Counted from the first letter of the stretch, positions 8,969 to 26,458 are shown. The stretch is 64,000 bases of DNA from Halarcobacter sp. (GCA_963676565.1 OY781089.1:2112001-2176000); one strand, 5' to 3'. A program made the numbers and translations. The notes: a model not told the origin generated them from the sequence alone.

Positions 8969-9031
8969 TTGCAGAAATAAAGTAATTTTTTTGTAAAATA
9001 AGCTTTCGCATACGAACTTTAGGAGTGATAA

Positions 9032-9955
9032 TTGTTATATAAAGAATTGAAAGAAAGTATTAGAACATTAGGTTTTTTAACAATAGAAGATTTTGTACAC
9101 TATATTGGAGTGACTCCAGCAGATATACTTGAATGGGAAGAAAAAGATGAAATCCCTTATACTGTTTCACTTATTATTCATCTTCTAAAAGGAGATGTTG
9201 ATTTACCAAATAATTCTGCACTTGATAACCTTGTAGAAGAGTGTTTACCTTTGGCTGAATTATTAGAAGAAGCATCATCTTTCCCTCATAAATTAGAAGA
9301 AATGTTTTTATTACAAAAACAATTGAATGATTCTACAAATGGTAAGAATTGGGAACTAGGGCAAAATAAATATGGAAAAGAGATTAATTGGCTTAGATGT
9401 ATCCATATGGAAGTTGCTGAATTAATTGAATCAACACCATGGAAACACTGGAAAAATATTAATGCAGCACCAGATATGAATAATATTCATGTTGAGCTTG
9501 TTGATATTTGGCACTTTTTAATGTCTTATATTTTACAAGAAACAAATGTACCAAAAGCTGTTTCTTTAGTAAATACTCATTGTATATATGAGGCTGTAGA
9601 AATAGAAGATATTGATGTAAAATTGATGGTAAAAGAGGCTGAAAAATTATCATATATCTCTTTAGCTATTGAAACTGGAAATATGCCTTCATTTAGTGGA
9701 GTTGAAAGATTTATTGATCAATTCTTTAGATGTTGTAAAATCTCTGGTTTATCTTTTATGTGGTTACAAAAACTATATATTGGTAAAAATTGTTTAAATA
9801 AATTTAGACAAGATCATGGATATAAAGAGGGTACTTATATAAAAGAATGGAATGGTGATGAAGATAATGTAGTTATGGTTTCTGTTTTAGAAGATATGGA
9901 AAATGTTAGCTTTGATGAACTTTATGAAGCATTAAATAAAAACTATCCTGGTTAA
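9032..9955 (+). CDS. dut: dimeric (all-alpha) dUTP diphosphatase with N-terminal HTH-like extension
   Basis: QKQLND, EVAELIESTPWKHWK, VELVDIWHF, KNCLNKFRQDHGYKEG, EDN are Campylobacter-type dUTPase motifs. Confidence 0.88.
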   Translation: MLYKELKESIRTLGFLTIEDFVHYIGVTPADILEWEEKDEIPYTVSLIIHLLKGDVDLPNNSALDNLVEECLPLAELLEEASSFPHKLEEMFLLQKQLNDSTNGKNWELGQNKYGKEINWLRCIHMEVAELIESTPWKHWKNINAAPDMNNIHVELVDIWHFLMSYILQETNVPKAVSLVNTHCIYEAVEIEDIDVKLMVKEAEKLSYISLAIETGNMPSFSGVERFIDQFFRCCKISGLSFMWLQKLYIGKNCLNKFRQDHGYKEGTYIKEWNGDEDNVVMVSVLEDMENVSFDELYEALNKNYPG

Positions 9956-9980
9956 TTAAGTAATAGTAAACTCTCAACTA

Positions 9981-10012
9981 AAGAAGTTAAGAAAAACTCT
10001 TCTTAACTTCTT
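9981..10012. terminator. bidirectional terminator-like hairpin
   Basis: 13-bp perfect inverted repeat aagaagttaagaa-N6-ttcttaacttctt between convergent genes. Confidence 0.7.
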
Positions 10013-10022
10013 AATCTTTTAA

Positions 10023-11186
10023 TTAAAAATCAAATTTTCTTTTCAATACAAAAAATACTTCTATAGTTTTATATTGTGAATAAATAAATGGAATCATTAG
10101 AAGAAAATATGCAATTGAATACTTATCAATTACATTATTATACGTTAATCCAAAATTAATAAAGAACATACCAAATACCATAAATGCAACACCTGGACAA
10201 ATCAATGCAAATGAGATTGATGATTTAGTATCATTACTATAAACATATTGTTCAAAGTAATTATTAATCTTCATAACTTTATACCCTAAAGCACCAAATA
10301 AAATCTGAATTGATAAAATAACTGAACTTAAGGTAAATAAAGATGATTTACTCATATGTGAATCAAAATTATGATCTAATCCAAATGAAACTCTAATCAT
10401 CATAATTCCAAGAAGTGTTAAAATTGGAATTAAAATCCATAATGATGGAGAAGCTTCAACTGAGATACCCTGTTCAAACATATTTTTAAATCCCATAGTA
10501 ATTTTAATAATTACAAGTAAAATTGCAACAGAACCAAAAAATAAAGCACCAAAAATACCAATAGCATTTATAACTAGATTATGACTCATTGCTCCAGGAG
10601 CTGCAAATCCAACAGAAACCATTGATAAAGAAAAGATTGATATCATTTGTGAAAGATTATTGTTTTTTGTAAAATCGAAATTACCATTTGTTAATATTCT
10701 AGAAAAATAGTTAAATAAAATTTTTAATGCATAATATCCACATGCCATAAAACCAATAATTGCAAAAGGAAACATATACTCAACTATACTCCATAATTTT
10801 GGTACAAAAACTGCACCTAAAACAAAACATACATTGATTGTCATTGCAAATGTTAAAGGAATCGTCATAAGAGTAATCTCTGAATTTGTTCCTATAAGAT
10901 TTTTATATGATTCTGTTTCTTTATATTTTTTAAATTGTTTTGTATTCCAAATAAGTAATTTAAAATGTAAATAAGCAAAGACAATGATAAAAACCAGTGA
11001 AAATACTATAACAAATGATAACCAAGTACCCTTTAATAGCTCTGGATATATAAAATCAAATGTAGCTAATGGAACACCTTTGTGGGGAACTAAAAACATT
11101 AAATACATAAAAAACGATACAGATAAACCACCAGCTCCTAATGCAGCTAGAAAACACATAGGATTGAACTTTTCCCTATATTCCAT
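10023..11186 (-). CDS. polytopic membrane protein, TsoY-like family (Cys form)
   Basis: About 10 TM segments; FLAALGAGGLSVSFFMYL and FALICPGVA motifs, family recalled from memory. Confidence 0.6.
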   Translation of the reverse strand: MEYREKFNPMCFLAALGAGGLSVSFFMYLMFLVPHKGVPLATFDFIYPELLKGTWLSFVIVFSLVFIIVFAYLHFKLLIWNTKQFKKYKETESYKNLIGTNSEITLMTIPLTFAMTINVCFVLGAVFVPKLWSIVEYMFPFAIIGFMACGYYALKILFNYFSRILTNGNFDFTKNNNLSQMISIFSLSMVSVGFAAPGAMSHNLVINAIGIFGALFFGSVAILLVIIKITMGFKNMFEQGISVEASPSLWILIPILTLLGIMMIRVSFGLDHNFDSHMSKSSLFTLSSVILSIQILFGALGYKVMKINNYFEQYVYSNDTKSSISFALICPGVAFMVFGMFFINFGLTYNNVIDKYSIAYFLLMIPFIYSQYKTIEVFFVLKRKFDF

Positions 11187-11275
11187 ATAAACCCTTTTAT
11201 TATAAATTTTTCCGAATAATACACAAAGAATTATTAAAAAAACATAAGTAAAAATAATAAGTTTAACTTATACTT

Positions 11276-12163
11276 ATGAAATATACAGAAAGATTTTTAA
11301 GAGCAATAAGGATAAAATTGCGAATGTATAAAATTTCAGTAGATAAAGAACTCTTTAAAAATATAAAATTTAAAAAAACGAAAATATTAGAAAAAGGAAC
11401 TTCTTTGTATTGGAAAAGAGAATTATTAGAACCAAGAATAGAAAATGACAAAATAAAATACACAATAAAACAACTTGATAAACTAAAAATCACTAATGGT
11501 TTAGGTGAAGATAAACCACAACTCATTATAGAGTGTGAAAGAGTTGACTACTCTTTTAAAAAAGATCTCTTTGAATTTCACCTTGGAAAAATACTAGAAC
11601 AAAAAAATACTGATATTCAAGAAGATTATAAAGATTCTTTAATAGAACAGTTATTAAGGGAAAAAGCTGCCCTAGAAGATAATATGAACAAAGATCATTT
11701 AACACAAGTTTATAATAGAAGAAAAATGGAAGCAGATTTAGACCTTTTTGTAAATCAAAATAATTCAGACTTACTATGTACCGTGTTTGTGGATGCAGAT
11801 AGATTTAAAGGTATTAATGATAATTTTGGTCATGATGCTGGTGATAGGGTTTTGATTTATCTTGCCAAAAAGTTAGAAAAATATGCAAGAATTTTAAATG
11901 GTGAAGTTTATAGATATGGTGGGGAAGAGTTTGTTATTTTATGTTTTATAAAAAAATCTGAGTTGATTTCAAAACTAAACGATTTAAGAGCAGAAATAAA
12001 AGCTCAAAGGATATATCATAAGATAAGAGACATATCTATTAGTGTTAGTATGGGAATCTCTTTTTATAGTGAATGTAACTCAAAAGATGAAATGATTATT
12101 AAAGCTGATAAAGGTGTTTATAAAGCAAAAAGTAATGGAAGAGATAGGGTAGAGTTTGGTTAG
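11276..12163 (+). CDS. diguanylate cyclase (GGDEF) with unrecognised soluble N-terminal domain
   Basis: DHLTQVYNRR, DADRFKGINDNFGHDAGD, RYGGEEF. Confidence 0.9.
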   Translation: MKYTERFLRAIRIKLRMYKISVDKELFKNIKFKKTKILEKGTSLYWKRELLEPRIENDKIKYTIKQLDKLKITNGLGEDKPQLIIECERVDYSFKKDLFEFHLGKILEQKNTDIQEDYKDSLIEQLLREKAALEDNMNKDHLTQVYNRRKMEADLDLFVNQNNSDLLCTVFVDADRFKGINDNFGHDAGDRVLIYLAKKLEKYARILNGEVYRYGGEEFVILCFIKKSELISKLNDLRAEIKAQRIYHKIRDISISVSMGISFYSECNSKDEMIIKADKGVYKAKSNGRDRVEFG

Positions 12164-12167
12164 TATT

Positions 12168-12185
12168 GTAGAGATTCCTCTCTAC
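12168..12185. terminator. terminator-like hairpin between convergent genes
   Basis: gtagaga-ttcc-tctctac. Confidence 0.5.
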
Positions 12186-12189
12186 CTTA

Positions 12190-12465
12190 CTATTTACCTA
12201 TTTTTTCTGCAATCGCTTGAATATCAGCGTCAGAAAGACCTGTAACTTGTGGTTTCATAATTGCTTTCATTGGACCACCATAAGTTCCATCTTGATACCC
12301 TTTTAATGAATCAATAATCTCTTGTTTAGTCATATCTTTCATTATTTTAGATTTTCCTAAAGCAACTTTTTCTCCATTGGCACCATGACATGCAACACAT
12401 TTAGCATAAGGGTTTGCAAAAGCAGCTCCAGCTAATATTGCAGTTAAAATTAAAACTTTCTTCAT
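12190..12465 (-). CDS. periplasmic monohaem cytochrome c (c553-like)
   Basis: Signal peptide, CVACH haem motif, YGGPMKAIM distal Met. Confidence 0.92.
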   Translation of the reverse strand: MKKVLILTAILAGAAFANPYAKCVACHGANGEKVALGKSKIMKDMTKQEIIDSLKGYQDGTYGGPMKAIMKPQVTGLSDADIQAIAEKIGK

Positions 12466-12493
12466 TATCTTCTCCTTAAATTTTATTTTTAAA

Positions 12494-12535
12494 ATTATAA
12501 TTAAAAATTGTAGAATAAAAATGGACTTATGTCAA
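12494..12535 (-). promoter_or_regulatory. cytochrome c promoter: TTGACA-17-TACAAT, plus a second TATAAT and an overlapping Crp/Fnr-like near-palindrome
   Basis: Minus strand reads TTGACAtaagtccatttttattcTACAATttttaatTATAAT; TTGAC-ataa-GTCCA is a one-mismatch palindrome. Confidence 0.55.
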
Positions 12536-12584
12536 GAAAAAAATAATTATTTTTTAAAAAAGTATAGTATTTTTTTATACTATA

Positions 12585-14162
12585 CTATTTTAAAGAGTCT
12601 AATAATTCTGCTTTTAATTCCTCTTTATTGATTTTATTCTTATCACTTGGAATTAAAGGAAGTGATTTTTTATAAATTATTCTATTAGGAATCATATAAG
12701 AAGCTAGATGATTTTTAAGTTCAAAAGTTATCTCTTTTGGAGGGATTTCACTTCTAGAACTATAAACCATAACTATCTCTTCTTCAATTTCATCATTTGG
12801 AATTGAGAATATTGCACATTGCTCAATTTGTGGAAAATTCTTTTCAACAACTGATTCAACCTCAAAAGGACTTACTCTAAATCCTCTAGTTTTAATCATG
12901 TCATCTCTTCTACTTACAAAATAGAAATATCCCTCTTCATCTTTATAAACATAATCTCCTGTTGCAACAACAATTTCATCTCTTAATTGTCCATCTAAAT
13001 TGATTACATTTTTTAAAATTTGAATCGATTTAAATCTTTGAGCCGTTTCAATTGGAGCATTCCAAAAACCTTTGTAGATATATCCACCTCTGTGGATTAA
13101 TTCACCCACTTCTCTTGGTTTACACTCATATCCCTCTTCATTTATAACATATAATTCTACGTCTGGAATAGCTTTTCCAATCGATTCAGGTCTAATATTT
13201 ATTTGTGATGGTTCTAAATATGTAGATCTAAATGCCTCTGTTAAACCATGCATTGAATAAAAGTTAACTTGAGGAAAATATCTTTGGATATTTTTTACCA
13301 TTTTAGGTGTTACATTTCCACCTGAAGAGGTAATAGTTTTTACATTAGCTAATAATTCAGGACTTGGTATTCTATGTTCATCTTCATCAAACATTGCATT
13401 TATAGTCACAGGCATCATAGCTACAACTGTTACATTATCATTTATTAAATGGTTGAAAAAATCTCCTGGTAAAATAAATCTATGTAATGCTAATGTTGCT
13501 CTTTTGTAAAGTGAACAAAAAATTTGATTTAAACCATAATCTAGATTAAAAATTAAAATTCCAGAAAGGACATCATCCTCTTGTAAATCTAAATATGAAG
13601 AAACAACCCTTGCACTATCAATTAAGTTTCTATGAGATATTACAATACCTTTAGGTGTTCCTGTTAATCCAAAAGAATAAGTTATTACAGCATTATCATG
13701 ACCATTTACTGTAGTTTCATATGGTTTTTTATAGTATTTAAAAATCTCTTCAAAAGAAGGGATATCTTTATGGGCAGTTTCGTATGAGATAATATGTCCA
13801 TCAAAATTAATTGATTCAATAGATTCAAGTTTTAATTTATCAGTAATAATACATCTAATATCACAATCATTGATTATGTATTCCACCTGTTCACTTTTAA
13901 GTAACTTTGTAAGTGGTACAAGCACATAATTGGTAGATAATATAGCTAGTATTGCTATAACTTGGTCCATACCTTTATTTGAGTAGATACCAATTCTACT
14001 CCCTGCTGGTAAATCTAACTCTTTTAAATAAAAAGCAATTTGATTAACTTTTTTTAATAACTCTTCATAAGTAATAGATTTCTCATTGTGTTTTATTGCT
14101 ATTTTATCACTATGTGTTAACGCAGCACTTTCAATTAATGATCTTATACAATTTATTGACAT
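12585..14162 (-). CDS. ANL-superfamily AMP-forming ligase / adenylation enzyme
   Basis: YSFGLTGTPKG (divergent A3), HGLTEAFRSTYL (A5), TGD (A7), RRDDMIKTRGFRVSPFEVE (A8). Confidence 0.88.
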   Translation of the reverse strand: MSINCIRSLIESAALTHSDKIAIKHNEKSITYEELLKKVNQIAFYLKELDLPAGSRIGIYSNKGMDQVIAILAILSTNYVLVPLTKLLKSEQVEYIINDCDIRCIITDKLKLESIESINFDGHIISYETAHKDIPSFEEIFKYYKKPYETTVNGHDNAVITYSFGLTGTPKGIVISHRNLIDSARVVSSYLDLQEDDVLSGILIFNLDYGLNQIFCSLYKRATLALHRFILPGDFFNHLINDNVTVVAMMPVTINAMFDEDEHRIPSPELLANVKTITSSGGNVTPKMVKNIQRYFPQVNFYSMHGLTEAFRSTYLEPSQINIRPESIGKAIPDVELYVINEEGYECKPREVGELIHRGGYIYKGFWNAPIETAQRFKSIQILKNVINLDGQLRDEIVVATGDYVYKDEEGYFYFVSRRDDMIKTRGFRVSPFEVESVVEKNFPQIEQCAIFSIPNDEIEEEIVMVYSSRSEIPPKEITFELKNHLASYMIPNRIIYKKSLPLIPSDKNKINKEELKAELLDSLK

Positions 14163-14174
14163 CTTATTGCTCCT

Positions 14175-15362
14175 TTATTTATTCATACCCAAAGTCCAAA
14201 TATCATAATTGTTATCCATTACAATAGTTGGGTTGTGGTTAGAGTTTAGAATCTTCTTATAGAAAAATGATACTATATCTTCTATTTCCTCTTGCTTGAG
14301 AACTTTTGTAATTCCACCTGTTAGTACAATAGAATTAAGTACATTTAGTTTTAAATTAACATAGGCTTTTCTAAAAGTTGAAACTTTACATAAAACTAAG
14401 AATATTGCTAATTGCATCAGAATTCTAGTGCTTTTTTCACTTTTCTCATCAAAAATATTTTCAGTAACTTTTAAATGTGCTAGTAATTCATAAACAAACT
14501 CATTGTTTTTTGCTGCAAAGATTAATGATTCCCTTGATTTATATACACCAAGTTTTTTAAATACTAATCTATCATATTCATTTTGAGTTACCATATTTTC
14601 ATCAACTAAGTCTTTTGAATAGTGGATATCAGTAGTTGCTCCACCAATATCTATCAAGATATAAGGATTAGCAACTTTAAATTTACCATCTATCATTGGT
14701 AAAGTTTTATTAACAATATATGGTGTTGAGTAGATTTGATTTGATGTAATATCATATAGACTTTTAATATCTTCTTTTCCCATAATATCAGCTTGATAAA
14801 GGTTTGTTAAATACTCTTTTAAATGTTCCTCTTCAACATGAAGTCTATTTGTAATAATATTTGGAAGAACAACAAGGTTTTTTATTTTTTCTTTTAAAGA
14901 AGGAGCTTCTTTTGAGCTTCCAACATATACAATATTTGAATATTTTATTTTCTCAAGGTATTCAAATAGTTTTTCATCAAAAATATTAGAAACAGAGTCG
15001 ATCCCCCCAACAATAATTACTACATCGATTAAATCACTTGGAATTGAAGTTTTTTCAATATCTTTATATAAAACAGTATCAATAATATTAATACCTGAAT
15101 TAAAGGCGATATTAGTAGCATATTTTAAAGAAAAAGAGTTTGTAACACCGATGATTAATGTACTTAAACCACCATTTGCCGATGAACAAATATATACATC
15201 ATCTTTTTTATAATTATGGATTGTATCACCACATTTATATGTTAAATCATCATAAATATCTTTATTAAAGTCTCTAAAATGTTGCTCAACTCCATGTACT
15301 GTACATACTTTAAAATATGTACTTCCCACATCAATTAATAATTTATCATTTATTTCACTCAT
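14175..15362 (-). CDS. glmL: glutamate mutase reactivating factor GlmL (ASKHA ATPase fold)
   Basis: LIDVGSTYFK, CSSANGGL, IDIGGATTDIH; follows glmE. Start moved to the ATG preceded by AAGGA (ORF track start 15377). Confidence 0.85.
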   Translation of the reverse strand: MSEINDKLLIDVGSTYFKVCTVHGVEQHFRDFNKDIYDDLTYKCGDTIHNYKKDDVYICSSANGGLSTLIIGVTNSFSLKYATNIAFNSGINIIDTVLYKDIEKTSIPSDLIDVVIIVGGIDSVSNIFDEKLFEYLEKIKYSNIVYVGSSKEAPSLKEKIKNLVVLPNIITNRLHVEEEHLKEYLTNLYQADIMGKEDIKSLYDITSNQIYSTPYIVNKTLPMIDGKFKVANPYILIDIGGATTDIHYSKDLVDENMVTQNEYDRLVFKKLGVYKSRESLIFAAKNNEFVYELLAHLKVTENIFDEKSEKSTRILMQLAIFLVLCKVSTFRKAYVNLKLNVLNSIVLTGGITKVLKQEEIEDIVSFFYKKILNSNHNPTIVMDNNYDIWTLGMNK

Positions 15363-15370
15363 ATTCATCC

Positions 15371-16738
15371 TTACCACTGCATAATACCGATATCATGGAT
15401 AATATCGTTTACAATTGATGTAGTATCTTTTTTCAAATCACATTGAGATTTTTCATATTCAAAACATCTGTCTGGAATTGGAACTTTACCTCTATCTATT
15501 ATTCTAATGTTTTTATTTTTATCTCTAATTGTAATCATGTTATTGTGATTAATAATATGTGGAGAGAATGGTACATCAATTGTTCCATTTTTGATTGAAT
15601 TAAATACTTTTCTCCATAAAGTGTCTGCAGGATCATTAAATACTGCTTCCATAATGGCCATAACTTCTGCTGTTAGGTTTTCCTCTTCCTCTTGGTCTAC
15701 AATATTTGGTAAACCATTTAAGATTCTAAGTAAGTATTGAGTATTTGCAACAGTTTCTGCATTTGCTTCTTTTGTTGGGATTCCTGAAGCTTCTTGTTTT
15801 GTTTTTGTAATAATTTTATCAGCTCCAACCATTGAAGCAATAACCGTACTCATAGAGATTAGTTGAGTTGCATAGTTTTGATCTTCCGGAAATGCACCCA
15901 TCCATTGGTGATAAACAAGGTGAATATCCGCATCTTCACACCCAATCTCATTAGCATAATATTTTGCCATTTTCTTTAAAACTGCAGCTGTTACAATATC
16001 TTGATTCATTGAACCTTGTTGTGAAAAAGAAACAGAAAATGATTTAACTCCCTCTTCAAGAGAAAGTAACATCTCTAAAAGTTGTATAACAATAGTAATA
16101 CAAGGTGGGACTAAAGTAGCAGTTAGTGGTCCAAATGATTCTCTATTTATTGGTTCATTTAGTTTTGAATATTGTGCACATACTCTTTCTACATATTTCC
16201 AGTATAAAAATGCTTTGTCTAATGGGAAATTTTTAGAGTAGGGTAAAAGGTAAGTTATTGGACCACCTTCAATCTCAAAAATACCAGAAGCTATTGCCGT
16301 TTCAATTAAAAGTCTTGCATCCGGAGTACCATGTCTTAATGAAATAGGCTTATTAAAGTGAGTCATCATTTTTCTAGTAGTTCTATATCCATGGTTAATT
16401 AAAGGATAACCATTTAACATATCAACTTCACTCTCTTCACTAAGTCTAAGCATCTTTTTAGAGGTTGCATAATCATTTAATCTTGTATTAGAATCGATTG
16501 TACAAGGAAGAACATCAACATCAGCATCATTAAAAAACTCATATAAAGCAAACATTTTATTGTATGTAGGAAAACCACCTCTTGGTTGTACTAACATTTT
16601 ATTTTTTGTTTTGAAATTATAAGAGATAAACAAATCTTTTGAAGCATTTTTAACAAAGTCTTCAACTTCTGCAAAATCAAAATTATCTACATATTCATTG
16701 TTTAAAATAATATTTCTTTCTTCTTGAAGTAAACTCAT
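15371..16738 (-). CDS. glmE: methylaspartate (glutamate) mutase large subunit E
   Basis: VQPRGG, TIDSNTR, LNGYPLINHG, RHGTPD, EGGPITY, NRESFGPL, HQWMGAFP. Confidence 0.92.
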   Translation of the reverse strand: MSLLQEERNIILNNEYVDNFDFAEVEDFVKNASKDLFISYNFKTKNKMLVQPRGGFPTYNKMFALYEFFNDADVDVLPCTIDSNTRLNDYATSKKMLRLSEESEVDMLNGYPLINHGYRTTRKMMTHFNKPISLRHGTPDARLLIETAIASGIFEIEGGPITYLLPYSKNFPLDKAFLYWKYVERVCAQYSKLNEPINRESFGPLTATLVPPCITIVIQLLEMLLSLEEGVKSFSVSFSQQGSMNQDIVTAAVLKKMAKYYANEIGCEDADIHLVYHQWMGAFPEDQNYATQLISMSTVIASMVGADKIITKTKQEASGIPTKEANAETVANTQYLLRILNGLPNIVDQEEEENLTAEVMAIMEAVFNDPADTLWRKVFNSIKNGTIDVPFSPHIINHNNMITIRDKNKNIRIIDRGKVPIPDRCFEYEKSQCDLKKDTTSIVNDIIHDIGIMQW

Positions 16739-17148
16739 TATTTTCTTCCTTCCATGAATTTTTCAAGTTCATCTAAACCAGTATTTAAATCTACTTGGTG
16801 AAATACTAAATCAAAACCATAATTTTTAAATTTTGGAACAATATCATCAGCATACCCTGTACCAACTACTAAGTTACCACCAATCATGAATACAACATTA
16901 TCCAATAAGTTACCATATTGAGCTTTTAAGATTCTAAGCTCTCTTGCCCAACCCTCTGCTTCACCATTAAGTGATGAAATTAATAAAATATCAGCATTTG
17001 TTTCAATCACTGCATCAATAAACTCTTCTAAGTAAGTATTTACACCTAAGTTGAATACTTCGAATCCTCTTGCTTGCAGTGAAAGTTCTATAAGTCTATT
17101 TGCTACTACGTGGATATCATTTCCCACTACGCCAGTTACTACTTTCAT
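16738..17148 (-). CDS. glmS: methylaspartate (glutamate) mutase cobalamin-binding subunit S (not glucosamine-6-phosphate synthase)
   Basis: GVVGNDIHVVA (DxH B12 ligand), SSLNG, IGGNL; stop overlaps glmE start. Confidence 0.92.
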   Translation of the reverse strand: MKVVTGVVGNDIHVVANRLIELSLQARGFEVFNLGVNTYLEEFIDAVIETNADILLISSLNGEAEGWARELRILKAQYGNLLDNVVFMIGGNLVVGTGYADDIVPKFKNYGFDLVFHQVDLNTGLDELEKFMEGRK

Positions 17149-17210
17149 GTACTTTACCTGTTATTATAATTGTTAAAAAGGTGATTATGTTATCTAAAAA
17201 AGAGTAAAAA

Positions 17211-18434
17211 TTAGATTAAGGTATTTACTTGGTTTCTTCCGTTGTTTTTTGATTTATAAAGGGCATTGTCAGCTCTATTTAAAACATCATCAACATTGTC
17301 ACCTTTTTTATATTGGCTAACTCCAAAACTTGCAGTTATATTTTGGAATATTTTAAAGTCATGTTTTTCAATATGGCTTTTAAGTTTTAGTGCCACACTT
17401 TCGCCAACAGTTAAGTTTGAATTAGGGCATATAATTAAAAATTCTTCGCCACCCCACCTTCCTACATAATCAACTTTTCTTGTTTGTTGTTTCAGAATTT
17501 TTGAAATCTCTACAAGGATTTTATCCCCTGTTAAATGACCAAACTGATCATTAATATTTTTAAAATAATCAACATCTAAAATTATCAATGAGAATTCAAT
17601 ATTATATCTTTGGGCATAAGAAAGCTCTTTTTCCAATAGATTATCTAGTTGCCGTCTATTGAAAACATTTGTTAATGTATCTTTGATAGATAGGTTTTCA
17701 ATAATTTTTTTATCTGTAATATCTTGATTTATTGTGGTATAGCATTTGACATTTCCTAATTCATCAAATGTAGGTGAAATAAGAAGTTTTATCCAAAATT
17801 CACTTCCATCTTTTCTAAGGTTTTTAATCTCACCATCCCATCTTTTACCTGAAGTTACAGTTTTCCACATATCTCTATATAAAGTTCGTGGTGTATCAGG
17901 GTGCTTTAGAATACTGTGTTTTTTTCCTATTAACTCATTTTTTTGATAACCAGTTATATTGCAGTAAGCAGTAGAAATACTTGTTATAATTCCCCGTGTA
18001 TCTGTTGTTGAGATAATTACATTTTTATCGATAATATCAACATATTCATTAACACTATTTTTGTTTTTTACTTCTTTTGTTATATTTTCAATAAAACCAT
18101 AAATATATTCAATATTTCCATCATCATCTTTTTTAAGTATTTTTGCTCTAGATGAAAAATATTTTATTTCATCTCTTTTTTTATCTAAAAATGGAAAGAT
18201 TTTAGAATATTCATAATCTTTAGATTTTAAACAATCTTTAAAATCATCAAAGAAATCACAGGAGTTGATAGGGTGTTTATTTTTGTTATTTGCTAAATTG
18301 AAATTTTCTGACATTAGTTTATTGCAATAGAAATACTCAGGGTCATTTTTACAGTCAATCAACCACCAAGCTATATCAGAAAAGTTAAGGATTTGTTGAA
18401 TATTTTCAAGGTATGCATCAAGCAAATTTTTCAT
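17211..18434 (-). CDS. PAS-GGDEF diguanylate cyclase
   Basis: PAS/PAC domain; DTLTNVFNRR, FKNINDQFGHLTGD, RKVD I-site, RWGGEEF. Confidence 0.92.
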   Translation of the reverse strand: MKNLLDAYLENIQQILNFSDIAWWLIDCKNDPEYFYCNKLMSENFNLANNKNKHPINSCDFFDDFKDCLKSKDYEYSKIFPFLDKKRDEIKYFSSRAKILKKDDDGNIEYIYGFIENITKEVKNKNSVNEYVDIIDKNVIISTTDTRGIITSISTAYCNITGYQKNELIGKKHSILKHPDTPRTLYRDMWKTVTSGKRWDGEIKNLRKDGSEFWIKLLISPTFDELGNVKCYTTINQDITDKKIIENLSIKDTLTNVFNRRQLDNLLEKELSYAQRYNIEFSLIILDVDYFKNINDQFGHLTGDKILVEISKILKQQTRKVDYVGRWGGEEFLIICPNSNLTVGESVALKLKSHIEKHDFKIFQNITASFGVSQYKKGDNVDDVLNRADNALYKSKNNGRNQVNTLI

Positions 18435-18510
18435 GAAGAGCAGTATACAATAATTATTATTACTTTTATATAACTTTTAAATAATTTTTTTAAAAATAAA
18501 GAAAAACTTT

Positions 18511-19548
18511 TTAAATAAATTTATTTATTATGATTTTAAAGGTGGTATTTTGTTTATCTGACTTAACTTTTAATTCCCCTTTAAAATGTTTTTCTATGAT
18601 GGTTTTACACATATAAAGTCCTAAACCTGTACCATTCCTCTTTTCTTTTGTTGTAAAATATGGATCAAATATCTTATCAATTATATCTTTTGGAATTCCA
18701 CCAGCATTATCTTTTATAATAATTATTTGGGCATTGTGATTTTCTTTATAACTAATATTAATGCTTGGATTTTTTATCTCATTTTCATTAAAAGCGTCAT
18801 TTGAGTTATTTAGTATATTTAATATAACTTGTAAGAGTTCATTTTTGTAAATATGTAGTTTGTTTAATTTAGTATTTTTAGTATTTGTAATTTTTACATT
18901 TGATAAGGGTTTGTTTAACATTTCTAAAGAGACATCAACTACATAATCTAGAGAAACATACATTTTTTCTTTATCTTTTTTGAAGAAATTTCTAAAATCA
19001 TCAATTGTTTCAGACATATAAATAATATATTTATCCATATCAACTAGTTTATTTTGTAAACTCTCTTTATCTACTTTGTCAATTTCAAGTCTAAATTTTA
19101 AGTTTGAAATTGCAGCTGCAATTGAAGCTAAGGGTTGTTTCCATTGGTGCGCAATCATGGAAATCATTTCACCCATTGCTGCCATTCTAGATTGTTCTAT
19201 TAGTAAACTTTCATTTTGTTTTAATTCAGTTAAGTTAAGTACATATAAAATTTTGTAAGATCTATTTTCATATTCAAAATCTTTAATTTTTATAATAGCT
19301 GGAACAATTTCTGCATTTTTTGAAAATAATGAAACCTCTTCATAAACATCATTATTAAATTCTAAATATTTCTTATTTATATTTGGGATTAAAATACCAG
19401 TAGCTAATTTATTTATTAATTCCTCTTTTGTCTCATACTTTAATATATCGAGCATGGCATTATTTATATTTTTAATAAAACCATCTTCTATTATAATAAT
19501 TCCTTCGATTGTATTATTAAATAAAGTATTTAAATATTTATTATTCAT
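18511..19548 (-). CDS. PAS-domain sensor histidine kinase
   Basis: N-terminal PAS, IAHQWKQPL, DNAGG, GTGLGL. Confidence 0.9.
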   Translation of the reverse strand: MNNKYLNTLFNNTIEGIIIIEDGFIKNINNAMLDILKYETKEELINKLATGILIPNINKKYLEFNNDVYEEVSLFSKNAEIVPAIIKIKDFEYENRSYKILYVLNLTELKQNESLLIEQSRMAAMGEMISMIAHQWKQPLASIAAAISNLKFRLEIDKVDKESLQNKLVDMDKYIIYMSETIDDFRNFFKKDKEKMYVSLDYVVDVSLEMLNKPLSNVKITNTKNTKLNKLHIYKNELLQVILNILNNSNDAFNENEIKNPSINISYKENHNAQIIIIKDNAGGIPKDIIDKIFDPYFTTKEKRNGTGLGLYMCKTIIEKHFKGELKVKSDKQNTTFKIIINKFI

Positions 19549-19612
19549 TATATTTATACCTTTTATAAATTATTTTTGTAGTATAATTTAATAATTCTTT
19601 TTGGGAGATAAA

Positions 19613-20362
19613 ATGGTCGATTATATAATGCTTGAAAAGTACGCAAAAAATAAAAGTGTTCTTTTAGTTGAAGATGATGATAACATCATAAAAGAGACTA
19701 AAGAGTTACTTGAACTTATTTTTTCAAATGTTATAGTTGCAAAAGATGGTGATGAGGGTATTAAAAAATATCTAAATTACAAAAAAGAGAATGATAAATA
19801 TATCGATTTAGTAATTACAGACATTCAAATGCCAAAAATGGATGGTATTGAACTTACTAAACTAATCTACAAAGAGAATAATGAACAACTCTTAATAGTA
19901 TTATCTGCCCACAGTGAAAGCCATTATTTACTTGAATTAGTTAATATAGGAATCTCACATTTTATAACAAAACCATTAAATTATGATTCTTTTGTACATG
20001 TTTTATATACAAAACTTAAAGAAGTACATGATAATAAAAATGAAGAGCTTAATACCTCAATAGTTGTAATTGATGAAGAATTAAAATGGGATAAAGAGTT
20101 AAAACAAATATATCAAAATGATCAGATTGTTAAACTTACTAAAAAAGAAACTAAACTTTTAGAGTTGCTTTTAAAATATGCAGAGAAGACACTAAGTGTT
20201 GAAGGTATATTAAATTACTTATGGTCAGATGATGATAATAATGCCCCTGATATTGCTAATCTAAAAAATATTATTTCAAGATTAAGAAAGAAAATACCAA
20301 CTATAGATATTGAAAATGTTTATGGTTTTGGCTACAGAGTTAACTTAAAATACACAAAATGA
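19613..20362 (+). CDS. OmpR-family response regulator
   Basis: REC (VEDD, TDIQMP, KP) plus winged helix (ISRLRKK, VYGFGY). ATG 19613 follows GGAG; ORF track start is 19601. Confidence 0.9.
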   Translation: MVDYIMLEKYAKNKSVLLVEDDDNIIKETKELLELIFSNVIVAKDGDEGIKKYLNYKKENDKYIDLVITDIQMPKMDGIELTKLIYKENNEQLLIVLSAHSESHYLLELVNIGISHFITKPLNYDSFVHVLYTKLKEVHDNKNEELNTSIVVIDEELKWDKELKQIYQNDQIVKLTKKETKLLELLLKYAEKTLSVEGILNYLWSDDDNNAPDIANLKNIISRLRKKIPTIDIENVYGFGYRVNLKYTK

Positions 20363-20416
20363 TACCTTTTTAATACACTGTTTGTATATACTTACTGTAT
20401 GTGCAGGAGGTGCATT

Positions 20417-20800
20417 ATGACTCAATTAGAAAGTTTAAAAAAATATACTATACTTTATGTAGAGGATGAAACTTTTATTAGAAGTAATGTAGAGGGTTGC
20501 CTGAAATATTTTTTTAATGTAATAGTAGCAAAAGATGGGCAAGATGGATTAAAAAGATTTGTTAATGATAAGATTGATTTGATTATTACTGATATTAATA
20601 TGCCTAATAAAAATGGATTAGAGATGTTAAATGATATTAAATCAATCAATCCTTCAATTCCATGTATTGTAACATCTGCTTATGATATAAATAGTGTAAG
20701 TAAAGCAAAAAATTTAGGTGTTTGTCATTATATTACAAAACCTTTTGATATAAAAGATTTATTAAATGATTCATTGGAAATTTTGAAAAAGAACGTATAA
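20417..20800 (+). CDS. single-domain response regulator
   Basis: VEDE, TDINMP, TSA, KPF. ATG 20417 follows AGGAGG; ORF track start is 20399. Confidence 0.88.
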   Translation: MTQLESLKKYTILYVEDETFIRSNVEGCLKYFFNVIVAKDGQDGLKRFVNDKIDLIITDINMPNKNGLEMLNDIKSINPSIPCIVTSAYDINSVSKAKNLGVCHYITKPFDIKDLLNDSLEILKKNV

Positions 20801-20823
20801 AAAGGTTTTAAAGCCTTCTTATA

Positions 20824-21324
20824 CTAAGAATATTCATTTTTATAATCAACATAATGGCCAGCATGTTTTATTAATTTTTCAACATCTTCATCGCTTAATG
20901 TTTTTACAACCTTAGCGGGGCTTCCCATTATTAAACTTTTTGGTGGAAATATTTTTCCTGAGGTAACTAAAGAGTTAGCACCTACAATTGAACCTTCTCC
21001 AATTACAGCATGGTCTAATATTGTTGCACTCATTCCTATTAAACAATTGTTTTCAATGGTACAACCATGAAGCATAACTTTATGTCCAATAGTTACATTG
21101 TCACCTAAGACTGTTTTTGAATCTGTATCCATGTGAATCATTGATAAATCTTGAACATTTGTATTTTTACCAATAATAATCTCATTTACATCACCCCTTA
21201 AAACACATCCAAACCAAATTGATGAGTTTTCTCCAATAGAAACTTTTCCTATTACATCTGCACTAGGTGCGATCCATGCACTAGAATCTATTTTTGGATA
21301 ATGTTCTTTAAATTTTAATACCAT
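20824..21324 (-). CDS. gamma carbonic anhydrase family (hexapeptide repeat) protein
   Basis: LRGDVN, NVQD..MIH, TIGHKVMLHGC with three His zinc ligands. Confidence 0.9.
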   Translation of the reverse strand: MVLKFKEHYPKIDSSAWIAPSADVIGKVSIGENSSIWFGCVLRGDVNEIIIGKNTNVQDLSMIHMDTDSKTVLGDNVTIGHKVMLHGCTIENNCLIGMSATILDHAVIGEGSIVGANSLVTSGKIFPPKSLIMGSPAKVVKTLSDEDVEKLIKHAGHYVDYKNEYS

Positions 21325-21396
21325 CTATTCCCCTTATATTTAAAGGAAATATTATATCTTGGAGAGTTTAAAAATGCAAGAAGCAAAATAGTTTAA

Positions 21397-23985
21397 CTAT
21401 TTTGCCTCATATTTAATAATTACTGGTTCTGAGTAGTTTGGAACTTCATCATATGTAAAGATTGCATAATACTTATCAATATCTTTAGCCCCAAAATCAT
21501 CATATGTATAGTTATCAGTCCCTGCATAAAGTTTTTGTCCATCATGGGTAGAATAGGGTTCCCTAAATGCATTTTTAATAACTTTAGTCCCTTTAAATCC
21601 TACATCTTTAGGGTTTTCCCAGCTGATTTTGATTTTACCATTTTCCAAAGATAGTGAGGTATTAGTAACTTTTGGAAGAGGGTATCTTCTTTTTGGAATA
21701 TGTTCAATAATTAATTTTGGAGAAAGTGCTTGGTTTTTAATCTCCCACGTAACACTTTTATTCTTTATACTCTTTTTAGAAGAGGTTGGTTTTAAAACAA
21801 AAGCAACATCAGATTTATTTTTTAGTTTCTCATTTAAAATAATCTCTGCAAAACTATCAAATAAGAAATATTGAGTTTGATTATTCTTTAATTCATTTGC
21901 ACTTACATCATAACCAATATTTTGAATAATTTCTCTATTTGCTATTGAATCATAATCTTGGTCGATATTTTCATCCACAAATTCAAGGTGAAATCGAATA
22001 TCATCTTTTATATAAATATTTGTAGAATTTAGCTCAAAGTAAGCTTTTGTAATCATCGTATCTTCATGAGGAGGCATTGATGATAAATTAAACTCAAAGG
22101 TAGAGTATATTTTCTTACCATTTTCATCGAATCCTGATGAAATACCATCTTGAGTAATACAATCTTTACAAACTGTAAACACTTTTTTTGGATATAGTTC
22201 TGTAATTGTTGGTTTTATTGTATATGTTAATTCTAATCTTGGTCTATATGTTAAACCATAACCAAATTTTCCATACCCAATATCCCATTGCATCATTTGT
22301 CTAGTACGACCAATTATCAACTCTTTTGGACCTTCAACTCTGAATACAACTTTTCCATATTTTTGACCCATTTCTTGAAGAGTTTTACACTCCATTCTTG
22401 AAAAACTCCATGTTCTCCATATACCTTGAGTTAATTGGTGAGATTCTGTAGGTCTTCCAACATATTGAAGAATTTGCATATTATCAACATCTTCATATTT
22501 GGTAATATCACCCATAGTTTCTTGATCTACAATACCAACATTCCATTCACCGTATTTTTCAATAGTTGTTGAAACTCTATTAATTGGGTAAAGGTTTATT
22601 GAGGCATCTTTTATGATTGCATTTTCTGGAACAGAATTTAAACCAACAGTAACAATAGCATAAGAGATACCCTTATTTTCATCAATTCCTACAAATAAAG
22701 AGTTTACACCAAAATGTGAAGCATTGTTGTTTAGGTTTTCAGCAACATAACCTGTTTCTTTTGCTGTTGCATAATAGGTTCTACTAAACTCATCATAATC
22801 ACAATCTGTTCTAAGTCTTATTTGAGGGTAAAATGGTGATTTTTCACCTGTTAATTTATTTACAACCCTAATATTGTAGAAATAATCTTTATTTGAAGTT
22901 AAATTAATATCACTAAATTCTAAAGTTTGTGTTCTTGCAATTAAGTTTGAACTATTACAAAAGTGTTTATCTTTTTGGGCTCTATAAATCTCAAAGAATA
23001 TATTTTCATTTGTTTCATATTCCCATTTTAAATTTACATGATGTGATCCTATTTCTGTAATCTCAAAGCTATTAACCCTTTTTACTGAATTATTTTTTGA
23101 ATAGTTTGGAACTTCGTTTACCGCAGAAAGTAATGCAGGAATATGTTCCCGCAAATTTTCATTCATATCATCCATATAATCACTTATATTTCTAGTTCCA
23201 ACTTCCACAACAGTTGAGATGATTCCTAAAGAATGATAAAACTCTCTACCACTTCCTGAAATCAATTTAATAGGTGGTTTACCTTGATGGATACCATATT
23301 CTCTACCTGAAATTTTTCTAATCTCTTCAGCCATATTTGCACATAAAGTGTTCATATCAGTTGTATCAATTGTATCTTCATGTCTAAAGTCGTGTGCAGG
23401 GAAAAATACATTTCCTTGTGAGTGGTAGTCTAAAGCAATAGTAATATTCTTATGGGCTTCAACAAAATCTCTTAATGCTCTAGTCTCAGGTTCAGAAAAT
23501 GGTTCTGGACCACCATAAACATTAGATGTTGTTTTGGTTGATTTTACATATCCAATTGGAAAATTTCTGTTTAAATCAACACCATAAGAACCATCTATAT
23601 TTGGTCTTCTATTTTTTCTCCAAAAAGAGAAGTGATTATAAGAATAATCAAAGCCATCTGGATTTGCACAAGGGACCATATAAATAGTAGTTCCTTTTAA
23701 ATATGATTGTATAGTTGTATCTGTATCTAATTTTTCTAATATATATTGTGCAAATTCTACTGCTAATTCATGTCCAATCCATTCTCTAGCATGGATAGTA
23801 CCAGTAAAAAATAGTGCTGGTTGTTCATCTGCTTTTTTAATATCCATAGAGATAGTAATTAGATTAATATCTCTTTTTTCCCAAGTTTGACCTATTGATT
23901 CTAACTTGAAATTATTAGGAAATTTTTTTTCTAAATCTTTAAAAATTTCAGTCGATTCATTATATGATCGATAAAGTTGTTTCAA
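21397..23985 (-). CDS. M14 zinc carboxypeptidase with C-terminal FN3-like/beta-sandwich domains, no signal peptide
   Basis: GTIHAREW (HxxE), WRKNR, GVDLNRNF, FSEPET, LDYHSQG, VVEVG; FN3-like LKWEY...YFYNIRVVN. Confidence 0.88.
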   Translation of the reverse strand: MKQLYRSYNESTEIFKDLEKKFPNNFKLESIGQTWEKRDINLITISMDIKKADEQPALFFTGTIHAREWIGHELAVEFAQYILEKLDTDTTIQSYLKGTTIYMVPCANPDGFDYSYNHFSFWRKNRRPNIDGSYGVDLNRNFPIGYVKSTKTTSNVYGGPEPFSEPETRALRDFVEAHKNITIALDYHSQGNVFFPAHDFRHEDTIDTTDMNTLCANMAEEIRKISGREYGIHQGKPPIKLISGSGREFYHSLGIISTVVEVGTRNISDYMDDMNENLREHIPALLSAVNEVPNYSKNNSVKRVNSFEITEIGSHHVNLKWEYETNENIFFEIYRAQKDKHFCNSSNLIARTQTLEFSDINLTSNKDYFYNIRVVNKLTGEKSPFYPQIRLRTDCDYDEFSRTYYATAKETGYVAENLNNNASHFGVNSLFVGIDENKGISYAIVTVGLNSVPENAIIKDASINLYPINRVSTTIEKYGEWNVGIVDQETMGDITKYEDVDNMQILQYVGRPTESHQLTQGIWRTWSFSRMECKTLQEMGQKYGKVVFRVEGPKELIIGRTRQMMQWDIGYGKFGYGLTYRPRLELTYTIKPTITELYPKKVFTVCKDCITQDGISSGFDENGKKIYSTFEFNLSSMPPHEDTMITKAYFELNSTNIYIKDDIRFHLEFVDENIDQDYDSIANREIIQNIGYDVSANELKNNQTQYFLFDSFAEIILNEKLKNKSDVAFVLKPTSSKKSIKNKSVTWEIKNQALSPKLIIEHIPKRRYPLPKVTNTSLSLENGKIKISWENPKDVGFKGTKVIKNAFREPYSTHDGQKLYAGTDNYTYDDFGAKDIDKYYAIFTYDEVPNYSEPVIIKYEAK

Positions 23986-23988
23986 AAA

Positions 23989-25491
23989 TTACTCTCCTAT
24001 TTTAAGTCTAGATTTTAATTGAGCTAATTTATTTTTCCCAATACCTTCAAGCTCTTTTAATTGATCTAAATCTTTTAAACCTTCATTTTTATTTCTGAAT
24101 TCAAAAATATTTTTTGCAAGTTTAGCACCAATACCTTTTATTTTCTTTAATATTGATTCGTCAGCTGTATTTATGTCAACTCTCATATCATCTAAATTCT
24201 CATCCCAAGTTTTTAGAACTTGTTCATCTATAGATTCTAACTCTAATAAATCACTTGAATCAGTAATAACATTGTTTTTTGCATATTCACTAATCTCTAA
24301 AGCTAAATCCTCTTCCATTCCATGTAAAGTCATTAAATCAGTTAATGATGCACAATTTAAATTTAATTTATTAATCTCTAAATTATCCCTAACTGCATTT
24401 TTTGATAACTCTTTTGCAATAGGTAATTTTTCAAAAGCAATTGAAGCTGGCACATCACTTGGTAAACTAGGTTCAGCCATTTCCATTTTAAATTTATCTT
24501 TTGGCTCATTAATAAAATATGTTCCATCACAAGATGGTTTGTATTTACTAAAACCAATATGTCTCATTGTTCTTAATAGTGATGAGTCAATTTTTCCAAG
24601 CTCTTCCCATGAGAATAATGGAACATGAGGCATAGGAAATTTACCATTTGAAAAATCCCACATTAAATATTGACAAATCCAATCTCTAATATAAGGGAAC
24701 GCTGCAAATGCAGTTGCACATTCTAGTATATAGGCTTTATCTGTTTTTGCATCAATTGCAATATCGCAAGCCCAATATTCAGCTTTTGCTGCTTTACTAG
24801 CTTCTACTGCTAATTCTAAAGCATTCATAGGAACATTTTCATATGACATAGAACCACCTTGAGATGTGTTAGTAATCCATTGTCCTTCCCCTGAAAATCT
24901 CCAAAAGGCGCAAACAGGTTTATGTCCAATTAACATAACTCTAATATCTCCAGAAAATTTTAAATCAATAGCATCTTGTGTATAAATGGGGTTATATTTT
25001 TCTTTTTCTAATAAAGCTTTAGCTTCTTTAAAATTATCAACTTTATGAACATAATATCCACCATAATTTGATGGTCCATAACTTCTTTTTATAATTTGTG
25101 GATACTTAGCTTTATTTTTTAGGTATTTAAATCCCTTTTCTTTATTGTAAAAAATCTTTGTATATGGTGCTGATAGATTATACTTTTCACAAAAAAGTGT
25201 AACATTCTCTTTTGATTTATTTGGAAATTGGGTTTCTAAAGATGGAACAAATCTTACATTTGGTAGTTCTTTTGAAATCTCTACAAATGTATCATATGCT
25301 GTTGCAGGGATATTTCCTATAAGTACATCGATTTTTTTTCTTTTAACTTCTTTTATAAATCTATTTTTATCATTTTTCCAATGATATGTAACAGACTCAA
25401 TCTTGTCTGGCCAACCTTTAAAGTTTGATTTGTCAAAGAATCTCAAAACATAATCTAAATACAAAAAACCTAACTTTGGTAATTTTTTCAT
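23989..25491 (-). CDS. divergent RimK-like ATP-grasp protein fused to tandem ComEA-type helix-hairpin-helix domains
   Basis: IIKRSYG, GDIRV, WITNTSQGG, ACDIA, ILECA; C-terminal VDINTAD..L..IKGIG...LEGIG. Start moved to ATG 25491 after AGGA (ORF track TTG 25509). Confidence 0.8.
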   Translation of the reverse strand: MKKLPKLGFLYLDYVLRFFDKSNFKGWPDKIESVTYHWKNDKNRFIKEVKRKKIDVLIGNIPATAYDTFVEISKELPNVRFVPSLETQFPNKSKENVTLFCEKYNLSAPYTKIFYNKEKGFKYLKNKAKYPQIIKRSYGPSNYGGYYVHKVDNFKEAKALLEKEKYNPIYTQDAIDLKFSGDIRVMLIGHKPVCAFWRFSGEGQWITNTSQGGSMSYENVPMNALELAVEASKAAKAEYWACDIAIDAKTDKAYILECATAFAAFPYIRDWICQYLMWDFSNGKFPMPHVPLFSWEELGKIDSSLLRTMRHIGFSKYKPSCDGTYFINEPKDKFKMEMAEPSLPSDVPASIAFEKLPIAKELSKNAVRDNLEINKLNLNCASLTDLMTLHGMEEDLALEISEYAKNNVITDSSDLLELESIDEQVLKTWDENLDDMRVDINTADESILKKIKGIGAKLAKNIFEFRNKNEGLKDLDQLKELEGIGKNKLAQLKSRLKIGE

Positions 25492-25517
25492 TCCTAACTT
25501 CCTTCTCAATTTATTAA

Positions 25518-26432: not shown

Positions 26433-26458
26433 AAGTTCTCCTAATTTATATATTCCTA

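Follow-up and report, generated by a model that had tools for sequence, protein, structure and literature searches.

A conserved cassette of marine bacteria pairs a predicted glutamate mutase with a stand-alone, VinN-like adenylation enzyme

Two settings are known for glutamate mutase: the anaerobic fermentation of glutamate, in which it is paired with methylaspartate ammonia-lyase (MAL), and the antibiotic gene clusters of actinomycetes. Catabolic operons run in the order glmS-glmL-glmE-MAL, and the vicenistatin-type biosynthetic system consists of the mutase VinH/VinI, the adenylation enzyme VinN, the pyridoxal phosphate (PLP) decarboxylase VinO and the acyl carrier protein (ACP) VinL. Here we analysed a stretch of 64,000 nucleotides from Halarcobacter sp. 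(GCA_963676565.1, OY781089.1:2112001-2176000; hereafter the window), in which genes for GlmS-like, GlmE-like and GlmL-like proteins are followed by one for an adenylating ligase. A first-pass annotation had described a tight operon of these four genes in the order S-E-L-ligase, with the mutase coupled to the adenylating enzyme instead of a lyase, and had suggested that this organism may make and activate 3-methylaspartate. With about even confidence, we propose that the operon serves to make 3-methylaspartate and, at the cost of ATP, to activate it for an acceptor that is either a common metabolite or the product of a gene elsewhere.

The four open reading frames (ORFs), all on the minus strand, occupy positions 17148..12585 exactly, and their family matches bore out the annotated gene order. 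A scan of species-representative genomes with the GlmE-like protein gave 441 genomes with a relative, and the best 80 loci were analysed with 10 kb on either side. Across these best 80 of 441 loci, GlmE was 81-98% identical to the window copy. Of the 80 loci, 71 carry S-E-L-ligase with order and strand unchanged, and in the other 9 the contig ends before the ligase position; with 71/71 informative loci alike, Arcobacteraceae among them, the arrangement is not a matter of chance. The coupling of mutase to adenylating enzyme thus stood, and so did the synteny across Arcobacteraceae for which the annotation had asked. The hosts are respiratory, mostly marine bacteria, in neither the fermentative-MAL nor the antibiotic-cluster context: Arcobacteraceae, Sulfurimonas, Sulfurovum and many marine Gammaproteobacteria (including Colwellia, Thalassotalea, Amphritea, Cellvibrionaceae, Halioglobus, a Vibrio bin and HTCC2143), with one Parasphingorhabdus (Alphaproteobacteria), one Cryomorphaceae metagenome-assembled genome (MAG; Bacteroidota) and one bin labelled beta-proteobacterial. 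The nearest public relative is a Halarcobacter MAG (L001), whose four proteins are 95-98% identical and whose flanks match. No description of this cassette was found in the open-access library searched.

The cassette is under strong purifying selection. Median identities between Arcobacteraceae and non-Campylobacterota copies were 86% for GlmE, 78% for GlmS, 74% for the ligase and 72% for GlmL, and among aligned orthologues 242/455 GlmE columns and 172/525 ligase columns are invariant. Codon-position identity between phyla was 0.85 at first, 0.93 at second and 0.35-0.51 at third positions; this low third-position identity, together with a glmE G+C content that tracks each host genome, indicates that no recent transfer took place. 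In the ligase tree the Arcobacteraceae form one clade, and the Sulfurimonas rows are basal in a clade containing all gammaproteobacterial rows. The alphaproteobacterial and Bacteroidota rows are nested inside the Gammaproteobacteria, which points to transfer or mis-binning. The cassette is a deeply conserved cross-phylum module and is not peculiar to the Halarcobacter source. This breadth had escaped the first-pass annotation. Its make-and-activate proposal gained partial support from the conserved mutase-ligase coupling, from the MAL-free loci and from the VinN-type pocket described below, while the lipid or surface-glycan decoration that it named as a possible product is a guess.

The GlmS-like protein passed NF002612 (methylaspartate mutase subunit S; 153 bits, cut-off 110), fell below the cut-off of TIGR01501 (94.9 bits, cut-off 135.8) and matched PDB 1i9c_A with an E value of 3e-21. 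Its B12 motif reads D11-x-H13-x-x-A16, the canonical form being DxHxxG, and 75/75 orthologues keep its D, H and A unchanged. The GlmE-like protein matched PF06368 (MutE) with 396 bits (cut-off 26.6) and the Clostridium cochlearium structure PDB 6h9e_B with an E value of 4e-82, and at 381.9 bits it came slightly short of the TIGR01503 equivalog cut-off of 390.1. In the HMMER alignment to 6h9e_B its R53, R86, R135, H136, E157, Y163 and Y167 align to the clostridial R66, R100, R149, H150, E171, Y177 and Y181, the substrate contacts of the C. cochlearium structures, the three arginines forming the arginine claw. All seven positions are invariant in 79/79 sequences. Judged by these conserved residues, the GlmS/GlmE pair looks like a true glutamate mutase (EC 5.4.99.1). 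The GlmL-like protein is far more divergent: it matched PF13941 (MutL) with 99 bits, reached merely 74 bits against the NF040745 GlmL cut-off of 475, is 25% identical to Salmonella GlmL over 198 residues and found no relative in the PDB sequence search, yet a GlmL-like ORF occurs in 76/80 loci.

When GlmE was placed in a tree with six comparators, the marine copies formed one side of a branch with support 98/97, on a long stem (3.19 changes per column) and with a very shallow crown. This stem, which sets the clade apart from all comparators, would suit a mutase that has shifted to a substrate other than glutamate, with the ligase activating the product of that reaction, and so would the scores under the TIGR01503 and TIGR01501 cut-offs and the invariant DxHxxA in place of DxHxxG. 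The seven clostridial substrate contacts are nevertheless unchanged in every sequence, and we consider such a shift highly improbable.

The ligase matched PF00501 (AMP-binding; 201 bits) and TIGR01733 (211 bits). Its top NCBIfam model was TIGR03098 (exosortase A-associated ligase), whose cut-off it did not pass (436.7 bits, cut-off 592.35), and the acyl-CoA ligase models were all far under their cut-offs, the best being NF004837 (232.6 bits, cut-off 476). All top PDB matches were adenylation (A) domains of nonribosomal peptide synthetases (NRPSs), the best single-domain match being 8xjz_C (162 bits); VinN (3wvn; 119.8 bits) and SlgN1 (4gr5; 94.5 bits) were among the further matches. The top PDB score of 206 bits, to LgrA, was rejected as a lead to specificity, as it is the sum of two A domains (99.0 and 104.5 bits). 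Because the equivalent of Asp235 is invariant, the top PDB matches are NRPS A domains and TIGR01733 scores 211 bits, the ligase is, as far as its sequence tells, an amino-acid adenylation enzyme and not a fatty-acid ligase. A protein search with the ligase gave a list dominated by giant NRPSs, in which the scores of many A domains add up, and in this list P0124 (60% identity) was the only single-domain representative, and a protein atlas look-up gave clusters named 'AMP-binding protein' only. Ligase residues D208, Y209, N212, S280, M304, E309, A310, F311, R312 and S313 are invariant in 68/68 sequences, as are Asp420 and Lys424 of the A8 hinge. K508, kept in 62/68, is the A10 lysine to judge by its HMMER alignment and its pattern of conservation; K510 was rejected for this role because its position is variable.

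According to a review of A domains (PMC11253843), VinN binds (2S,3S)-3-methylaspartate as a beta-amino acid, a conserved Asp takes the amino group, a bulky Phe231 (236 position) and Ser299 (301 position) lie opposite the loop, and the beta13-beta14 loop is shorter by one residue and bears Lys330-Arg331. Three of these four hallmarks are present in the ligase, as D208 at the GrsA-235 position, the bulky Y209 at 236 and S280 at the 301-equivalent, and the fourth is half present. The ligase loop has one residue fewer than that of LgrA A1 and two fewer than that of LgrA A2, both alpha-amino-acid domains. The VinN analogy drawn in the first-pass annotation extends to single residues, since its pocket aligns gaplessly with that of the AMP-binding enzyme from a Vin-like cluster in Streptomyces: SWDYGLYK there and NLDYGLNQ here in the A4 region, TNTGAA and TSSGGN in the 299-301 region, and GQTEAKRITVMPP and GLTEAFRSTYLEP in A5 plus the loop. 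The two loops are equal in length, and Arg312 aligns to the Arg of the TEAKR loop in the Streptomyces enzyme.

MAL directly adjoins glmE in 3/3 catabolic comparator clusters, and it was looked for here in several ways. Pfam scans of the window (55 ORFs of at least 90 aa and 9 small non-overlapping ORFs) found no MAL family, no PP-binding carrier and no PLP decarboxylase of the Orn/DAP/Arg type. tblastn with the MAL of a Salmonella plasmid cluster (L081:8272-9513) and the PLP decarboxylase of the Streptomyces Vin-like cluster gave 0 matches at E<=1e-3 in the window and 0 matches within 10 kb on either side of all 80 loci. Neighbouring ORFs of at least 60 aa within 4 kb on either side of the cassette fell into 298 families, and the 183 ORFs scanned against Pfam (73 representatives of recurrent families, 63 singletons of up to 110 aa and 47 singletons of 330-520 aa) contained no MAL, carrier protein or PLP decarboxylase (PF02784/PF00278). 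Two claims of the annotation, that the window has no MAL and that no carrier or acceptor is encoded locally, were thereby upheld within these scans. If the module served ordinary glutamate catabolism, the MAL/mesaconate pathway would have to lie elsewhere in the genome, with the ligase acting as a mesaconate- or fatty-acid-coenzyme A (CoA) ligase. GlmE is indeed nearer to catabolic GlmE proteins (36-37.5%, with Salmonella at 37.5%) than to the Streptomyces biosynthetic one (29%), the ligase has sub-threshold matches to many acyl-CoA ligase models, and the search for MAL covered the window and the 10-kb surroundings of its relatives, not the rest of the genome. We nonetheless judge this explanation improbable, as MAL is missing from the surroundings of 80/80 loci, acyl-CoA ligase models do not come near their cut-offs, and the ligase keeps the amino-group-binding Asp in a VinN-type pocket. 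The cassette is also present in Sulfurimonas, which are chemolithoautotrophs.

The same neighbourhoods bear on whether the ligase needs a carrier at all. A carrier-free ligase would let ammonia, an amine or a macromolecule react directly with beta-(3-methyl)aspartyl-AMP, giving 3-methylasparagine, a conjugate or a 3-methylaspartyl modification. Models for such chemistry are asparagine synthetase A and the pair of EpmB aminomutase and EpmA ligase, which modifies EF-P. No carrier or CoA-dependent follow-up enzyme was seen among the scanned neighbours of the 80 loci, a Methylobacter plasmid cassette indicates that mutase-plus-amide-ligase designs exist, and no PP-binding domain is listed for the sister ligases that carry fused Acyl_transf_3 or glycosyltransferase domains. 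The argument is by analogy only, however, and most ANL enzymes of this architecture form thioesters. The invariant A8 hinge residues are those expected of enzymes with a second half-reaction, and an Acyl_transf_3 gene follows the ligase in 1/71 loci only (L035). Taken together, a carrier-free ligase of this kind appears unlikely.

Most relatives carry a further gene beside the cassette, which the first-pass annotation had not noted. An RraA-like protein of 159 aa is encoded divergently upstream of glmS in 69/80 loci by tblastn, at a median gap of 163 bp, and was recovered as an ORF family in 66 loci. Upstream DNA is missing altogether in 3 of the other 11 loci and shorter than 1.8 kb in another 3; the remaining 5, with at least 9.5 kb, are all Arcobacteraceae in which the gene is truly absent nearby, and the 64-kb window likewise contains no such gene. 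The protein passes the RraA equivalog narrowly (144, cut-off 136). An Arg-Asp pair is present in 60/60 copies where E. coli RraA has Arg-Gln, and in the homologous HMG/CHA aldolase, an enzyme that doubles as an oxaloacetate decarboxylase, this Arg is indispensable and the metal is bound by the Asp (PMC5065237). Fused forms of the RraA-like protein came down to a single one, with an LMWPc phosphatase domain, and it was uninformative. Just past the RraA-like gene, 26-27 loci, none of them Campylobacterota and with differing outer flanks, encode an AspC/TyrB-type aminotransferase (NF006719, 568 bits), which is also missing from the window. Beta-keto acids decarboxylate spontaneously as well, so that a window without the RraA-like gene fits a dispensable step. 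For the E. coli isoleucine route, bioRxiv 10.1101/2025.08.26.672309 documents transamination of methylaspartate to methyloxaloacetate and its spontaneous decarboxylation to 2-oxobutyrate. The chemistry of the linked genes matches this route, which suggests a side route from 3-methylaspartate to 2-oxobutyrate as a second outlet. In the library searched, we found no paper joining 'methylaspartate mutase' with RraA.

One could go further and suppose that the entire module exists to turn glutamate into 2-oxobutyrate in a B12-dependent way, as a source of isoleucine or propionyl-CoA, through mutase, aminotransferase and RraA-like protein in turn, with the ligase as an accessory or regulatory component. 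The close and frequent linkage of the RraA-like gene, its retained catalytic Arg-Asp, the aminotransferase in 27 loci with varying outer flanks and the documented E. coli chemistry all favour this. Set against it, the universal partner of the mutase is the ligase (71/71) and neither of the other two; the RraA-like gene is missing nearby in the window and in the five well-covered Arcobacteraceae loci; the route requires no ATP-dependent ligase; and the ligase pocket is conserved as strongly as the mutase active site. We regard it as a minority explanation, with a modest chance of being correct.

Production and activation of 3-methylaspartate could proceed as follows. GlmS and GlmE, as predicted from their conserved residues, would form the adenosylcobalamin-dependent mutase that converts L-glutamate to (2S,3S)-3-methylaspartate, and the GlmL-like protein would maintain its activity. 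As the pocket suggests, the ligase would bind 3-methylaspartate in the manner of VinN, as a beta-amino acid, with Asp208 holding the amino group and Arg312 on the short loop holding the free alpha-carboxylate, and would probably adenylate the C4 carboxyl. The equilibrium of the mutase favours glutamate; an irreversible, ATP-driven ligase step would pull it towards product. The 3-methylaspartyl group might then pass to an acceptor encoded elsewhere; CoA, an amine, ammonia and, in trans, a carrier protein or membrane acyltransferase are candidates. Separately from this, in most relatives a second outlet may lead from 3-methylaspartate through 3-methyloxaloacetate to 2-oxobutyrate and CO2, by the RraA-like protein as a metal-dependent decarboxylase of the oxaloacetate type and, in Gammaproteobacteria, the AspC/TyrB-type aminotransferase.

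Several points weigh against this proposal. The assignment of 3-methylaspartate as ligase substrate draws on a handful of residues, and L-aspartate or L-glutamate may be the substrate instead. Phe311-Arg312 stands where VinN has Lys-Arg, overall identity between the ligase and the Vin-like enzyme is only 24%, and VinN is not the top PDB match (119.8 bits against 162 for 8xjz_C). An acceptor, carrier or downstream enzyme was linked in no locus among the scanned neighbours, which leaves a thioester-forming ligase without a visible continuation; another 115 larger singletons lay outside the Pfam scan, their DNA being covered by tblastn for MAL and the PLP decarboxylase only. Moreover, the aminotransferase and the RraA-like protein reach 2-oxobutyrate without the ligase and do not explain its place.

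By analogy with EpmB/EpmA, a bolder version is conceivable, though less likely than not: a B12-dependent branch of metabolism, not described so far and widespread in marine bacteria, in which 3-methylaspartate would be made on purpose and a carrier-independent VinN-like enzyme would activate it with ATP outside polyketide synthases (PKSs) and NRPSs, to yield a conserved small molecule, for instance a 3-methylaspartyl amide, or to attach 3-methylaspartyl groups to a housekeeping macromolecule. Were production and activation of 3-methylaspartate to prove correct, this compound would have a use not yet described in these organisms, one more cobalamin-dependent function would lie behind the B12 need of marine bacteria, the ligase and its exosortase-associated sisters would constitute a class of stand-alone enzymes activating amino-dicarboxylates, and the RraA-like protein would gain 3-methyloxaloacetate as a candidate substrate.

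The positions of the cassette and of other features of the window, whose G+C content is ~25-33%, are given in the table. GlmS and GlmE genes share one base (1 nt), those for GlmE and GlmL overlap by 7 nt, and GlmL and ligase genes are 12 nt apart. An extended -10-like element and a ribosome-binding site lie within the 62-bp gap between the PAS-GGDEF gene and glmS, and the cytochrome c gene has its own near-consensus promoter. With these tight junctions, the promoter-like leader and the separate cytochrome c promoter, the four genes look like a single transcription unit, in agreement with the tight operon first annotated. The extended -10-like TTTGnTATCAT is also found upstream of glmS in relatives of several phyla. 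Where the RraA-like gene is present, its intergenic region with glmS holds two back-to-back extended -10-like elements kept across phyla (e.g. L024, L051, L063, L077); the one on the RraA-like side is the reverse complement of ATTCTAGCA, reading TGCTAGAAT, and the glmS-side element persists in the window despite the loss of the RraA-like gene. A regulator site between the two genes was considered and rejected, since the motifs read as back-to-back extended -10 promoters. An Rfam search of positions 9000-22000 gave no family at E<=1, and thus no riboswitch or other RNA upstream.

Table. Cassette genes and other features of the 64-kb window
Feature	Position	Strand	Size	Matches and remarks
GlmS-like B12-binding sigma subunit	16738..17148	minus	136 aa	PF02310, NF002612
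GlmE-like catalytic epsilon subunit	15371..16738	minus	455 aa	PF06368 MutE
Divergent GlmL/MutL-like accessory protein, presumed reactivase	14175..15377	minus	400 aa	PF13941; GTG start
Predicted stand-alone amino-acid adenylation enzyme (ANL superfamily), VinN-type pocket	12585..14162	minus	525 aa	PF00501
Leader	17149..17210	minus	62 bp	Promoter-like TTTTAGATAACATAAT at about 17199..17184; AGGTAAA ribosome-binding site
PAS-GGDEF gene	18434..17211			Upstream of glmS, 62 bp away
Promoter of cytochrome c gene	12535..12507			TTGACA-17-TACAAT
Small cytochrome c gene	12465..12190			Downstream of ligase
TsoY family (seleno)protein	10023-11186			NF047644, 504.7 bits
Run of ligase and peptidase genes	21397-27550	minus		M14 carboxypeptidase-like (862 aa); RimK-like ATP-grasp + HHH_3 (506 aa); RimK-like ATP-grasp (304 aa); M20 peptidase
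Anaerobic ribonucleotide reductase NrdD	49590-51840		703 aa	Matches Pfam profile to position 529/562 only
ORF in another frame with last 30 NrdD profile positions	51682-51840		52 aa	Overlap 20 nt
ORF with CNF1 Rho-activating domain match	63078-63293		71 aa	20.7 bits (cut-off 25), E 2.9e-4

In many Arcobacteraceae the TsoY gene is syntenic with the cassette, together with a GGDEF gene and the small cytochrome c gene. The run of genes that lies 4 kb away has the look of an amino-acid ligase/peptidase set, and elsewhere it stands beside the cassette in L001 only. About 18 other Arcobacteraceae loci share with L003 (3949-6042) a gene a few kb upstream, not found in the window, whose 697-aa product combines DinB_2, FGE-sulfatase and methyltransferase domains, an architecture that resembles sulfoxide synthases of the ovothiol/ergothioneine type. 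In one Alteromonadaceae locus (L035, 14199-15239), a gene for an Acyl_transf_3 membrane acyltransferase begins 69 bp after the ligase on the same strand; as it is confined to this locus and does not specifically resemble the Acyl_transf_3 domains of the sister-ligase fusions, it was discounted as a weak lead. Farther off, the break in NrdD is a frameshift, a sequencing error or a natural C-terminal split, and the CNF1-domain match is most likely due to chance.

Clusters with a glutamate mutase fall into several designs when set beside the cassette. In the catabolic plasmid clusters of Salmonella, Gemmobacter and Rhizobium, MAL comes right after glmE, followed by CoA-transferase/lyase or hydratase genes. 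Like these and the Clostridium enzymes (1cb7/6h9e), the cassette has GlmS, GlmE and GlmL homologues with the substrate-binding residues kept. Unlike them, it has the order S-E-L (S-L-E in the Salmonella and Rhizobium clusters), no adjoining MAL, CoA-transferase, lyase or fumarase/mesaconase, a very divergent GlmL, the motif DxHxxA and a GlmE clade of its own (98/97).

The biosynthetic clusters, on Streptomyces and Roseibium plasmids, include PKS or NRPS genes. The vicenistatin-like cluster of the Streptomyces sp. SAT1 plasmid (L082) encodes an AMP-binding enzyme, a type III PLP decarboxylase, a B12-binding protein, MutE and a type I PKS. As in the cassette, the B12 mutase directly adjoins a stand-alone adenylation enzyme, and both ligase pockets have DYGL, Ser/Thr at the 301-equivalent and a loop of the same length with Arg (TEAKR there, TEAFR here). 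In contrast to the vicenistatin type, neither the window nor the 80 loci yielded a PLP decarboxylase, ACP or PKS; the ligase and GlmE are only 24% and 29% identical to their counterparts; Phe takes the place of Lys330; there is a GlmL-like gene; and the hosts are marine Gram-negatives and not actinomycetes.

A third design is that of the Methylobacter sp. YRD-M1 plasmid (NZ_CP091425.1; L085, 3847-9207), which combines a class II aminoacyl-tRNA synthetase-like 'asparagine synthetase A' (PF00152), a B12-binding protein, MutE (32% identical to the window GlmE), an EamA exporter and a 505-aa protein without a Pfam family; it may make and export a 3-methylaspartate amide.

Among ligases, the closest parallel is a sister family with 30-34% identity, called 'exosortase A-associated' by one source (TIGR03098), which has the identical GLTEAFRSTYL loop and shares FD[YFA]GL[NS]Q with the cassette ligase. 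Its members are fused to a PLP decarboxylase of the Orn/DAP/Arg type (P0274), to Acyl_transf_3 (P0275, P0276) or to a glycosyltransferase (P0279 and others), with no PP-binding domain listed. Such fusions occur only in these relatives, with none among the longer proteins of the cassette ligase orthogroup. The ligase-decarboxylase fusion mirrors VinN/VinO and thereby supports an amino-dicarboxylate substrate held via its distal carboxyl. Unlike in the TIGR03098 systems, where the decarboxylase, Acyl_transf_3 and glycosyltransferase domains are fused or adjoining, none of them is linked to the cassette, and the exosortase-associated systems are not known to include a mutase. In the library searched, we found no paper joining exosortase, acyl-CoA ligase, decarboxylase and acyl carrier protein.

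With the E. coli route to 2-oxobutyrate and isoleucine (Phillips 1972, as cited in bioRxiv 10.1101/2025.08.26.672309), the cassette and its neighbours share a mutase, an aspartate-type aminotransferase and the decarboxylation of methyloxaloacetate. That route relies on promiscuous enzymes and spontaneous decarboxylation and has no ligase, whereas the relatives of the cassette have a dedicated aminotransferase and an RraA-like candidate, the ligase is the constant partner, and the window has neither of the other two. Compared with all of these systems, the cassette is a further design, in which a mutase and a stand-alone VinN-like ligase are in most cases accompanied by an RraA-like gene but by no assembly line.

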